Source: Armatimonadota bacterium (lineage in GTDB: Bacteria; Armatimonadota; HRBIN16). Taken from it: DNA of 64,000 nucleotides. Under the pieces are notes generated by a model. It saw nothing but the letters and a program-made list of their open reading frames with translations. It had not been told where the DNA came from and made no database searches. The DNA is taken from positions 397,020 to 461,019 of the forward strand of contig BPGT01000003.1 of NCBI GenBank assembly GCA_026003175.1, read 5' to 3'. Positions 1-1,462 of the stretch are shown here, piece after piece. Numbering within the stretch: position 1 is the stretch's first letter; each line of letters opens with the position of its first letter. Position numbers and translations under genes: made by a program.

Positions 1-215
1 TTATCCCGCACTTCGAGCGGTATCCGCTGCAGGGTGCCAAACGCGAAGACTTCGAACGCTTTGCCAGCATCTGCCAAAAGGTGCACGCGAACCTGCACCT
101 GAACCGACAACATCTGCGCGAGATTATCGAACTCGCGTACGCGATGAACAGTTCGGGCGTGCACAAGCGCAGTAAACGCGATCTCCTAAGGGTACTCGGC
201 GAGGAAAAGGGATAG
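1..215 (+). CDS. LAGLIDADG homing endonuclease, C-terminal fragment (5' truncated by window; frame 3, stop TAG 213-215)
   Basis: Translation is IPHFERYPLQGAKREDFERFASICQKVHANLHLNRQHLREIIELAYAMNSSGVHKRSKRDLLRVLGEEKG*. The IPHF(D/E)KYPL ... NMNxGR pattern is the conserved C-terminal region of intron-encoded LAGLIDADG enzymes, recalled from memory and not searched. The ORF is not in the ORF track because it has no start codon inside the window. Confidence 0.6.
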   Translation, partial: IPHFERYPLQGAKREDFERFASICQKVHANLHLNRQHLREIIELAYAMNSSGVHKRSKRDLLRVLGEEKG

Positions 216-238
216 TCTACCCCCTCTGGAAACAGAGG
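1..238 (+). mobile_element. Group I-type intron in 23S rRNA (3' part only; 5' part lies outside the window). It carries a homing-endonuclease ORF. The 3' splice site is approx 236-241, just before GTGAAGTTCCGACC, in the E. coli ~1949/1951 region.
   Basis: The sequence 1-215 is an open reading frame that ends with TAG at 213-215 and looks like a LAGLIDADG homing-endonuclease C-terminus. The 23S exon sequence GTGAAGTTCCGACCCGCACGAATGG starts at ~241. Exact 3' boundary not resolved. Confidence 0.6.
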
Positions 239-531
239 ATGTGGTGAAGTTCCGACCCGCACGAATGGTGTAACGATCTGGGCGCTGTCTCAACGGGAGA
301 CTCGGTGAAATTGTAGCACCGGTGAAGATGCCGGTTACCCACCGCAGGACGGAAAGACCCCGTGGAGCTTTACTACACCCTGGTATTGCGTTCTGGAGTA
401 GTCTGTAGAGCGTAGGTGGGAGCCGCAAGGCGCCAATGGAACACCACCCTGACTATTCTGGGACGCTAACCCGAGCCGTTATCCGGCGAGGAGACAGTAT
501 CAGGCGGGTAGTTTGACTGGGGCGGTCGCCT

Positions 532-1450
532 CAAGAGTGGGGCGCTCTGACGGTAACGTCAGAGGCAAACCTGGCTATATGCTGGGAAGTCCGTCTCCTA
601 ACCCCAAGCCGTGCCTCCGTGCTTTGGGTGAAGGGGTGTAGTATCCAGCGCTAGTGGTGCTGCCACTGAAAAAGCGTCTGGTGCGGACAATCAGCAGGGA
701 AGTCTTCGTGACCCCTCAACGACTGTACGCCAGGCATCCACCCGACGAGTGGATGGTGAGACAGTCTGAACTTCCGGGCGACCGGAAGCCTCTTGGAGGC
801 GTTCAGCCCGCAGGGGAGAAGGTTACATGGCACACTCACGTGAGATTGAAGAGTACAAGCAAAAGCTGAAGCTGGATCGAACCCAGCGTGAGGTGCTGGT
901 CGGTTTGCTACTCGGCGATGGACATCTGGAAACCCAAAACGAGGGACGCACCTATCGTCTGAAAGTAGAGCAAAGCGAACAGCACCAACCGTATGTCCAG
1001 CATCTGTATGAACTCTTCCAAGCGTGGGTGTTGACACCACCGCAACCTAAAAAAGAGGGAAAGTGGTGGTTCCAAACAATAAGCCATGGAGCCTTCCGCT
1101 TCTATGCGCAACAATTTTACCGCGAGGGTCGCAAGGCGGTGCCCAAAATCATCCATCGGCTTCTGAAGCCGCGTGGATTAGCCTACTGGTTCATGGATGA
1201 TGGCTCTATTAAGGACGCCCACTCCAGAGCAGTAGTGCTGAACACGCAAAGCTTCAGCCGAGAGGATGTGGCAAGATTGGCACAGGTGCTGAGCGAAAAG
1301 TTTGCGCTGGAAGCGTACCTGCGCAGGCAGCGGGAAGGGTATCAGATAGTGATTGCAGGTAAGAGCCTGCAAAGGTTTCTGGATCTGATAGAGCCGTATC
1401 TGATACCTGAAATGAGATATAAGCTGCCGAAGGCTGGACGAACAGAGTTG
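532..1450 (+). mobile_element. Group I-type intron in the 23S rRNA P-loop/helix 80-81 region. 5' exon ends ...GTCGCCT(531); 3' exon starts CCTAAAAGG at 1451.
   Basis: The conserved contiguous 23S sequence GGGGCGGTCGCCT|CCTAAAAGGTAACGGAGG is split by 919 nt. The last exon nucleotide is U, and the intron-internal GGGCG at ~540-545 can form P1 with exon CGCCU with a U.G wobble at the splice site. The intron ends in G at 1450. It contains a LAGLIDADG ORF. Confidence 0.7.
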
Positions 1451-1462
1451 CCTAAAAGGTAA
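827..1462 (+). CDS. Double-motif (monomeric-type) LAGLIDADG homing endonuclease, intron-encoded. The last 12 nt including the TAA stop lie in the 3' exon.
   Basis: 211-aa ORF. The two LAGLIDADG motifs are LVGLLLGDGHL and LAYWFMDDGSI. RBS GGAGAAGG sits 4 nt upstream of ATG 827. The stop codon TAA 1460-1462 falls inside the conserved exon sequence CCTAAAAGGTAACGG. Confidence 0.85.
   Translation: MAHSREIEEYKQKLKLDRTQREVLVGLLLGDGHLETQNEGRTYRLKVEQSEQHQPYVQHLYELFQAWVLTPPQPKKEGKWWFQTISHGAFRFYAQQFYREGRKAVPKIIHRLLKPRGLAYWFMDDGSIKDAHSRAVVLNTQSFSREDVARLAQVLSEKFALEAYLRRQREGYQIVIAGKSLQRFLDLIEPYLIPEMRYKLPKAGRTELPKR

Follow-up and report, generated by a model that had tools for sequence, protein, structure and literature searches.

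Two probable mobile group I introns with LAGLIDADG homing-endonuclease genes in one 23S ribosomal RNA gene of an Armatimonadota bacterium

The window (the whole 64,000-nucleotide (nt) stretch of contig BPGT01000003.1 analysed here) opens within a 23S ribosomal RNA (rRNA) gene that very probably carries two independent mobile group I introns, each with its own LAGLIDADG homing-endonuclease gene. The source organism is a Fimbriimonadales-related member of the Armatimonadota, represented by a hot-spring metagenome-assembled genome. The anatomy of the introns, the family assignments of their proteins, covariation, purifying selection and incongruence between intron and exon are all observed directly. 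The parts of the interrupted gene are as follows, where L055, L056 and similar three-digit handles denote related loci, and L1951 and L2262 denote insertion sites in the large-subunit (LSU) rRNA by E. coli number.

1-2089, plus strand: 3' part of the 23S rRNA gene (Rfam LSU_rRNA_bacteria, 804.6 bits, model positions 1932-2925), with two interruptions
1-246, plus strand: 3' end of intron 1, group I, site L1951; the remainder lies upstream of the window; 98.8% identical to L055 9175-9420
247-531, plus strand: 23S exon between introns 1 and 2, E. coli 1952-2262 (Rfam LSU and rrl alignment); 100% identical to L055 and L056
532-1450, plus strand: intron 2, group I, site L2262, 919 nt (Rfam Intron_gpI match; E. 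coli rrl alignment)
1451-2089, plus strand: 23S 3' exon, E. coli 2263 to the 3' end (Rfam LSU and rrl alignment)

The Rfam LSU alignment contains two big inserts, one of 226 nt or more at the start of the window and one of 932 nt after GGGGCGGUCGCCUC. The junctions were numbered by aligning the joined exons to the annotated E. coli rrl gene, in which GGTAAGTTCCGACC corresponds to 1949-1962 and TGGGGCGGTCTCCT to 2249-2262. The first junction lies between G246 and A247, and A247 is E. coli A1952, which places the insertion after U1951 (site L1951). The second insert spans 532-1450 (919 nt); its 5' exon ends at U531 and its 3' exon begins at C1451, which places it after U2262 (site L2262). The exons joined across L2262 give a gap-free alignment to E. 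coli 2249-2280, and removal of intron 2 restores the sequence of helix 81. The site itself lies 9 nt past G2253, on the 5' strand of helix 81 and adjoining the P-loop hairpin. A model that had earlier read the letters of the window without database searches (the sequence-only reading) proposed two group I introns with LAGLIDADG genes in this gene, a second insert of 919 nt and a check against an intron-less 23S rRNA; the alignment to E. coli rrl defined both junctions (U1951 and U2262) and gave that length. That reading had the first junction in the right region (~1950) and misplaced the bases GUG, which it assigned to the exon and which are the final three bases of the intron, up to G246. It likewise had the second site in the right region, that of the P-loop, but the site is beside the P-loop hairpin rather than at a P-loop position.

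Intron 2 is a group I intron. The Rfam Intron_gpI model (RF00028) matches 522-788 with 69 bits (threshold 50, E = 2e-15) over its full length (model positions 1-253/253), and the alignment spans P1 to P9 with a long P5 extension. The L2262 introns of L003, L007, L012, L055 and L056 score 60-76 bits with the same model. The elements of the ribozyme that could be placed around the 5' splice site and in the 3' domain are listed below.

527-533 with 538-544, plus strand: P1, 7 bp with a 4-nt loop; U531.G540 wobble at the 5' splice site (sequence and Rfam structure line)
761-766, plus strand: 3' strand of P7 (Rfam alignment)
A769 and A770, plus strand: P9.0 nucleotides of J7/9 (Rfam alignment)
771-788, plus strand: P9 hairpin (Rfam alignment)
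789-799, plus strand: small hairpin, named P9.1 by us (sequence and comparison with relatives)
800-808, plus strand: 5' strand of P9.2, CGUUCAGCC, forming 9 bp with 1432-1440 in a long-range helix around the open reading frame (ORF)
1432-1440, plus strand: 3' strand of P9.2, GGCUGGACG, which doubles as codons of the ORF tail (..A G R..) and ends 10 nt before the splice site
1441-1450, plus strand: 3' tail AACAGAGUUG; U1448 and U1449 pair with A770 and A769, respectively (P9.0), G1450 is terminal, and relatives share a conserved tail ending in ACGAACAnAAUUG at the splice site

The wobble pair that the sequence-only reading had proposed at the splice site is thus U531.G540 within P1. The terminal nucleotide of the intron is G1450, and both the terminal G and the U/CC junction (the slash marks the junction of the exons) are kept in all 45 introns found at the same site. 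P9.0 covaries without exception (44/44 L2262 introns), J7/9 GAAC going with a terminal UUG (n=30) and GAUC with AUG (n=14). The register of P9.2 recurs in most relatives with differing sequences (CGUGCAGUC with GACUGCACG, GGUCCAAC with GUUGGGCU, GGGUUCGGUCU with AGACCGAACUU, CGUCAUGCGC with GUGCAUGACG, and UUUGAUC with GAUCAAA). We tested this helix by searching each locus for the longest helix, with strands taken from different loci and a shuffled 5' region as controls. The strands of the same locus form a longest helix of 7.7 bp on average, with 85% reaching at least 7 bp, compared to 5.7 bp and 26% for the cross-locus control and 5.6 bp and 20% for the shuffled control. The per-locus search was used in place of MAFFT with RNAalifold, which in the 3' domain recovered P9 alone and not P9.2, because P9.1 varies in length and the 5' strand of P9.2 is misaligned; RNAduplex output was noisy and over-extended.

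Intron 1 is, by comparison with its homologues, also a group I intron, a member of the Coxiella-type L1951 class. The sister genomes used to complete it, L055 and L056, were found via proteins 98% identical to the intron-2 enzyme; their rRNA is 99-100% identical to that of the window and their flanking genes are 85-88% identical, and their 23S gene is 4596 nt long with exactly two introns. The complete L1951 intron of L055 (8686-9420) has 735 nt and carries a 160-amino-acid (aa) ORF in the P8 loop. The following parts of intron 1 lie in the window.

3-215, plus strand: C-terminus of the intron-1 endonuclease, single-motif LAGLIDADG_1, 70 codons and a stop; tail IPHFERYPL...GEEKG; UAG at 213-215
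198-204, plus strand: 3' strand of P8, GGCGAGG; its partner CCUCGCC is upstream of the window (from the L055 sequence and the Rfam alignment of L003)
211-218, plus strand: 3' strand of P7, GAUAGUCU, preceded by J8/7 and harbouring the stop codon UAG (213-215)
223-228 with 233-238, plus strand: P9 hairpin with a GAAA loop (RNAalifold, 9 homologues)
218-221 with 243-246, plus strand: P9.0-like helix around P9, taking in the terminal G246 (columns 319-322 with 346-349)

Applied to nine ORF-trimmed homologues of intron 1, RNAalifold predicts 60 pairs, 25 of them with compensatory double changes. The U.G pair at the splice site in P1 is invariant (columns 10/25), P2 shows many compensatory changes, and there is support for P4-P6, P7 and P9. 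The P7 pairs G-C, A-U, C-G, U-A and G.U are kept in the 9 homologues (columns 184-188 with 314-318), and compensation extends to P9 and P9.0, where columns 320/348 hold AU (n=5) or GC (n=3) and columns 322/346 hold five pair types. The program mispaired the 5' strand of P3 with the exon, and P3 (AACCGGC with GCCGGUU) was read straight from L055. Two hairpins between P7 and P3' in L055, seen by eye, resemble P7.1/P7.2 and suggest an IA-like fold for intron 1.

The ORF of intron 1 continues from the P8 loop through the 3' strand of P8 and J8/7 to the UAG of P7, and this stop at the AUAGUC position of P7 is common to L001, L003, L012, L013, L017, L018, L055 and L056. As the sequence-only reading had it, the ORF ends at 215 with a LAGLIDADG C-terminus. 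The 70-aa fragment in the window matches PF00961 weakly (16.8 bits, cut-off 23.1, E = 0.013), and the full 160-aa orthologue in L055 scores 89.4 bits. The L055 protein also matches each half of two-domain LAGLIDADG enzymes of known structure (I-OnuI, for example), which is what one expects of a single-motif enzyme that works as a homodimer. ORF-less L1951 introns occur in L032 (5140-5415, 276 nt) and L042 (5102-5364, 263 nt).

Several points weigh against the assignment of both inserts to mobile group I introns. Intron 1 is present in the window only as its last 246 nt, and its 5' part is inferred from the sister genomes. The Rfam Intron_gpI model stays below threshold on the L1951 introns of L003 (31.6 bits, E = 8e-6) and L055 (17.9 bits, E = 0.057), and gives no match at E <= 1 on the ORF-less L1951 intron of L042. 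This generic model copes badly with introns that have P7.1/P7.2, and the group I call for intron 1 rests on comparative covariation because the model is below threshold. In intron 2, no convincing complement of CCUAAA that would form P10 was seen by eye beside the guide sequence in the 4-nt loop of P1; P10 is weak or missing in many group I introns. In addition, the relatives are mostly metagenome bins and rRNA operons are frequently mis-binned, so their phylum labels are soft; the exon identities given below are independent of these labels.

As an alternative, the inserts could be expansion segments or intervening sequences that either stay in the mature rRNA or are cut out by RNase III with the ends left unligated and the 23S rRNA fragmented. 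Bacterial 23S genes often contain intervening sequences (discussed in PMC11270868), and the low Rfam scores of the intron-1 homologues would fit such an origin. We regard it as extremely improbable. Intron 2 scores above the Rfam threshold with a complete core, and both inserts have the U.G pair at the 5' junction, the terminal G and covarying P9.0 and P9. Their positions, helix 71 and helix 81, belong to the functional core of domains IV and V, away from the helix 25 and helix 45 sites of known intervening sequences, and both inserts contain homing-endonuclease genes. An RNase III-processed intervening sequence would be an extended stem-loop in place of helix 25 or 45 that lacks a ribozyme core, and neither insert is of this kind. 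The sequence-only reading had itself named expansion segments with no group I core, or ORFs with no LAGLIDADG match, as the refuting outcome; core elements are present in both inserts, and profile matches were found. The Rfam and profile searches it proposed gave clear results for intron 2 (69 bits with Intron_gpI and a strong match to PF03161, LAGLIDADG_2) and split ones for intron 1, whose homologues stay below the Intron_gpI threshold and whose fragment in the window is below the profile cut-off, with the L055 orthologue above it.

Intron 2 encodes a two-motif enzyme of the I-SceI family.

813-822, plus strand: Shine-Dalgarno-like purine run GGGGAGAAGG, ending 4 nt ahead of the AUG (sequence reading)
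827-1462, plus strand: intron-2 homing-endonuclease gene, 211 aa, I-SceI family (LAGLIDADG_2); codons 209-211 and UAA (1451-1462) are exonic

The protein matches PF03161 (LAGLIDADG_2) with E = 4.7e-49 and 167 bits over profile positions 1-168/168, and aligns with I-SceI (1r7m) over residues 3-203 (E = 3e-37). Its motifs LLLGD31G and WFMD124D125G align with the two motifs of I-SceI, with D31 and D124/D125 opposite the acidic residues, so the 211-aa two-motif ORF of the sequence-only reading is borne out. An identical protein carries the annotation 'hypothetical protein KatS3mg022_2990 [Armatimonadota bacterium]'. Relatives of intron 2 have GGAGG or AAGGAGG where the window has the purine run. 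The ratio of nonsynonymous to synonymous substitution rates (dN/dS) of the ORF is 0.08-0.18 among the window, L055, L056, L001 and L003, in all of which the ORF is stopped in the exon. The gene is therefore maintained by purifying selection.

We next compared intron 2 (532-1450) with the L2262 introns of L001 (5707-6624, an Anaerolineae bin) and L003 (5711-6645, a Fimbriimonadales bin). The 23S exons of the window are 99.5-99.6% identical to those of L003 and 81% identical to those of L001. In contrast, the ribozyme is 88.5% identical to L003 and 92.8% to L001, and the ORF 76.3% to L003 and 86.4% to L001. The intron is closer to the copy from a distant lineage than the host gene is, which differences in rate cannot give, and this indicates that the L2262 intron moved horizontally between distant lineages. 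The site is filled in more than 10 phyla and empty in E. coli and most bacteria. A review (PMC3984707; Hausner, 2014) describes evidence for horizontal movement of such introns among bacteria as scarce, and the contrast between exon and intron identities is direct evidence of the transfer of a bacterial rRNA intron between distant lineages.

The distribution of the family was sampled with one scan of species-representative genomes, which returned 53 related loci. In ~45 of them exactly the same U/CC junction is occupied, by introns of 755-1071 nt. Their hosts are Armatimonadota, Anaerolineae, Bipolaricaulota, Actinobacteria, WOR-3, Caldisericota, Patescibacteria, Planctomycetota, Bacteroidota, Ignavibacteriota, Elusimicrobia, Omnitrophota and Alphaproteobacteria, and the family of the intron-2 protein comprises 1944 clusters at E <= 1e-10. 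An L1951 intron is also present in at least 12 of the fetched loci, and some have a third intron. The sequence-only reading had called two introns in one gene, with one at a P-loop position, uncommon, a rarity that these ~45 same-site introns in many phyla do not support; neither two introns per gene nor an ORF terminated in the exon is rare within the L2262 family.

L003 has a third group I intron (3990-4690) at site L1917, with a 187-aa LAGLIDADG ORF that overlaps the core, separated by a 34-nt exon from the L1951 intron. We take this pair around a 34-nt exon to be the arrangement known from Coxiella burnetii. A third intron at L1917 was considered for the organism of the window and rejected, since the 23S gene of its nearest relatives, L055 and L056, holds just two. 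In L001, the 23S 3' exon (~6625-7616) is ~350 nt over the expected length, which suggests another insertion downstream of L2262.

The ORF of intron 2 ends outside the intron. UUG (1448-1450) is its last intron codon, and the exonic part consists of CCU AAA AGG (P K R) and UAA, i.e. three sense codons and a stop rather than the four codons and a stop that had been read from the sequence. The UAA is a conserved exon triplet, E. coli 2272-2274, and it is the stop of the ORF in the lineage of the window. The homology to I-SceI stops at ...YKLPKA, with the end of the fold near residue 203 (...YKLP), and the last 8 residues (GRTELPKR) are read-through of P9.2, P9.0, the splice site and the exon until the first in-frame stop. 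The ORF occupies the P9.2 loop, and its final codons overlie the 3' strand of P9.2, P9.0 and the splice site.

The position of the stop falls into classes among the 45 L2262 introns. It is 9 nt into the exon (+9, the UAA of the window) in 25, 43 nt into the exon (+43) in another frame in 3, and 5-22 nt before the splice site in 15, often as ACA UAA UUG directly at the junction; the ORF is decayed in 2 (L047 and L050). Counting intact ORFs, 28/43 end in the 3' exon. The exon-terminated ORF is thus the majority state of the family, and one base change converts between the two main classes. The +43 class was seen in the Elusimicrobia loci L031, L033 and L034, whose ORF uses another frame (...KCLNG...) when it passes the 3' splice site. 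As for the decayed ORFs, that of L047 has premature stops and that of L050 a ~170-nt deletion that leaves a 755-nt intron, with the ribozyme part retained in both.

The introns might splice and carry endonuclease genes that are unexpressed or inactive relics, the exon-terminated ORF being an accident of decay. The homing cycle predicts decay of the ORF after fixation, the truncated ORFs of L047 and L050 with their retained ribozymes are as it predicts, and the position of the stop varies (+9, +43 or -5 to -22, counted from the 3' splice site). We nevertheless consider relic genes improbable, because dN/dS is low across the window, L055, L056, L001 and L003, the full-length ORF has kept both acidic motifs, the Shine-Dalgarno-like run is retained upstream and the incongruence between intron and exon implies recent movement. 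A somewhat less improbable, still unlikely, alternative is that the intron-2 protein acts mainly as a maturase that aids folding of the intron at high temperature, perhaps besides cutting DNA. The protein of a Thermotoga neapolitana 23S intron reportedly has such a role, the source is a hot-spring assembly and purifying selection is equally compatible with it. Against it, I-SceI-type (LAGLIDADG_2) enzymes are not known to act as maturases, the catalytic acidic residues are kept, and the broad, host-incongruent spread favours active homing. Mobile introns with homing-endonuclease genes remain the preferred interpretation.

By analogy with what is established for these families, both introns would splice, and their enzymes would cut DNA and promote homing. 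Each ribozyme would fold once the rRNA (rrn) operon is transcribed, and free guanosine would attack the bond 3' of the U in the U.G pair of P1. The terminal G, placed by P9.0, would then take the position of the guanosine in P7, and ligation of the exons would restore the conserved rRNA of helices 71 and 81. The enzymes would be translated from intron RNA, for intron 2 with the Shine-Dalgarno-like run ahead of the AUG, and would cut intron-less 23S rDNA at the insertion sites. A duplex with GACTGGGGCGGTCGCCT/CCTAAAAGGTAACGGAGG, or with GACTGGGGCGGTCGCCTCCTAAAAGGTAACGGAGG, would carry the predicted target of the intron-2 enzyme. Repair would copy the intron into the cut site, and homing of this kind would explain the spread of the element across phyla.

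A ribosome completing the intron-2 ORF would have to unfold P9.2 and P9.0 and would occupy the 3' splice site, so that translation and splicing of one molecule would be mutually exclusive. In the +9 and +43 classes the excised intron lacks a stop codon, which suggests that the precursor RNA would be the productive message. It is possible, though we propose it only tentatively, that the exon-supplied stop acts as a built-in limiter of nuclease dosage: the excised intron would be a non-stop message, terminated protein would come from unspliced pre-23S rRNA alone, and translation and splicing would exclude each other. Enzyme would then be made only during the brief existence of the precursor, and products of spliced-out introns would be directed to degradation mediated by transfer-messenger RNA (tmRNA). 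Such a limiter, if real, would restrain a nuclease whose target gene is essential.

The L1951 intron has a close counterpart in Cbu.L1951 of Coxiella burnetii, which occupies the same site after E. coli U1951 and encodes a single-motif LAGLIDADG enzyme. The two are of one size class (720 nt and 157 aa in Table 1 of PMC1995217 compared to 735 nt and 160 aa here, taken from L055), and they were likened by site, size and motif rather than by alignment. They differ in host (Gammaproteobacteria vs Armatimonadota) and in that the stop here is a UAG inside P7. That survey (Haugen et al., 2007) lists bacterial LSU introns with endonuclease genes at L1917, L1931, L1951 and L2593 only, all single-motif, and describes ORFs that run out of peripheral loops and into ribozyme core elements; an overlap of ORF and core is likewise described in PMC3984707. 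Thermophilic Synechococcus (L1917, L1931 and L2593; PMC1995217) resembles the present case in having several endonuclease-encoding group I introns in one hot-spring 23S gene, with ORFs running into the core, and differs in the sites, in having only single-motif enzymes and in that no ORF is reported to cross the 3' splice site.

The intron-2 protein is homologous to I-SceI of the omega intron in yeast mitochondrial LSU rRNA, and both are two-motif monomers with conserved acidic residues, encoded by group I introns of LSU rRNA. Unlike the omega intron, intron 2 is at L2262 rather than L2449, has a bacterial host and holds its ORF in the 3'-terminal P9.2 loop, reading into the exon. Because of the different insertion site, the DNA target of the intron-2 enzyme must differ from that of I-SceI. 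A survey (PMC11270868; Tsurumaki et al., 2024) describes 62 LAGLIDADG_2 ORFs, typically of ~210 aa, in 23S insertions of the candidate phyla radiation (CPR)/Patescibacteria, together with many CPR 23S group I introns and, between 1952 and 2593, three frequently occupied sites described as unreported in other bacteria. The LAGLIDADG_2 genes of that survey match that of intron 2 in family and size, and the Patescibacteria locus L023 carries an L2262 intron; the host here belongs to a non-CPR phylum. L2262 is likely one of the sites 23IS9-11 of PMC11270868, an unconfirmed match, as the coordinates are given only in figures. Our literature search found no description of site 2262, which is missing from the 2007 list of bacterial LSU sites (PMC1995217), and nothing specific on introns in Armatimonadetes.

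The rRNA operon is followed by other features.

2153-2269: 5S rRNA (Rfam)
2327-5404, minus strand: Poly_export/SLBB protein, 1025 aa
5827-9663: methyltransferase-glycosyltransferase fusion, 1278 aa
9785-13150: glycosyltransferase protein with tetratricopeptide repeats (TPR), 1121 aa

Just 3' of the 5S gene, 2281-2320 holds a G+C-rich inverted repeat (CCCCCTGACC...GGTCAGGGGG) and then a T-rich run, which by eye resemble the intrinsic terminator of the rrn operon. The region downstream of the operon (2327-13150) holds large envelope and polysaccharide genes, whose families were assigned via the syntenic loci in L055 and L056.

Both introns are ordinary mobile group I introns and leave the general picture of such elements unchanged. 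What appears to be new is the L2262 family, which is widespread and apparently undescribed in the literature searched; the L1951 intron joins a known class. For annotation, the intron-2 enzyme is a 'hypothetical protein' in its source record, and, since the L1951 intron scores below threshold with the generic Rfam model, 23S genes of this kind will be mis-called or split by pipelines. For the cataloguing of homing sites, L2262 is a widely used site by the P-loop hairpin of the peptidyl-transferase centre. To our knowledge, characterised I-SceI-type enzymes are few. L2262 may be a 23S homing site without a published description, with a thermophile-derived I-SceI-type enzyme of new specificity, and its family offers hundreds of natural I-SceI-type variants for a new 23S target, some of them from hot springs.

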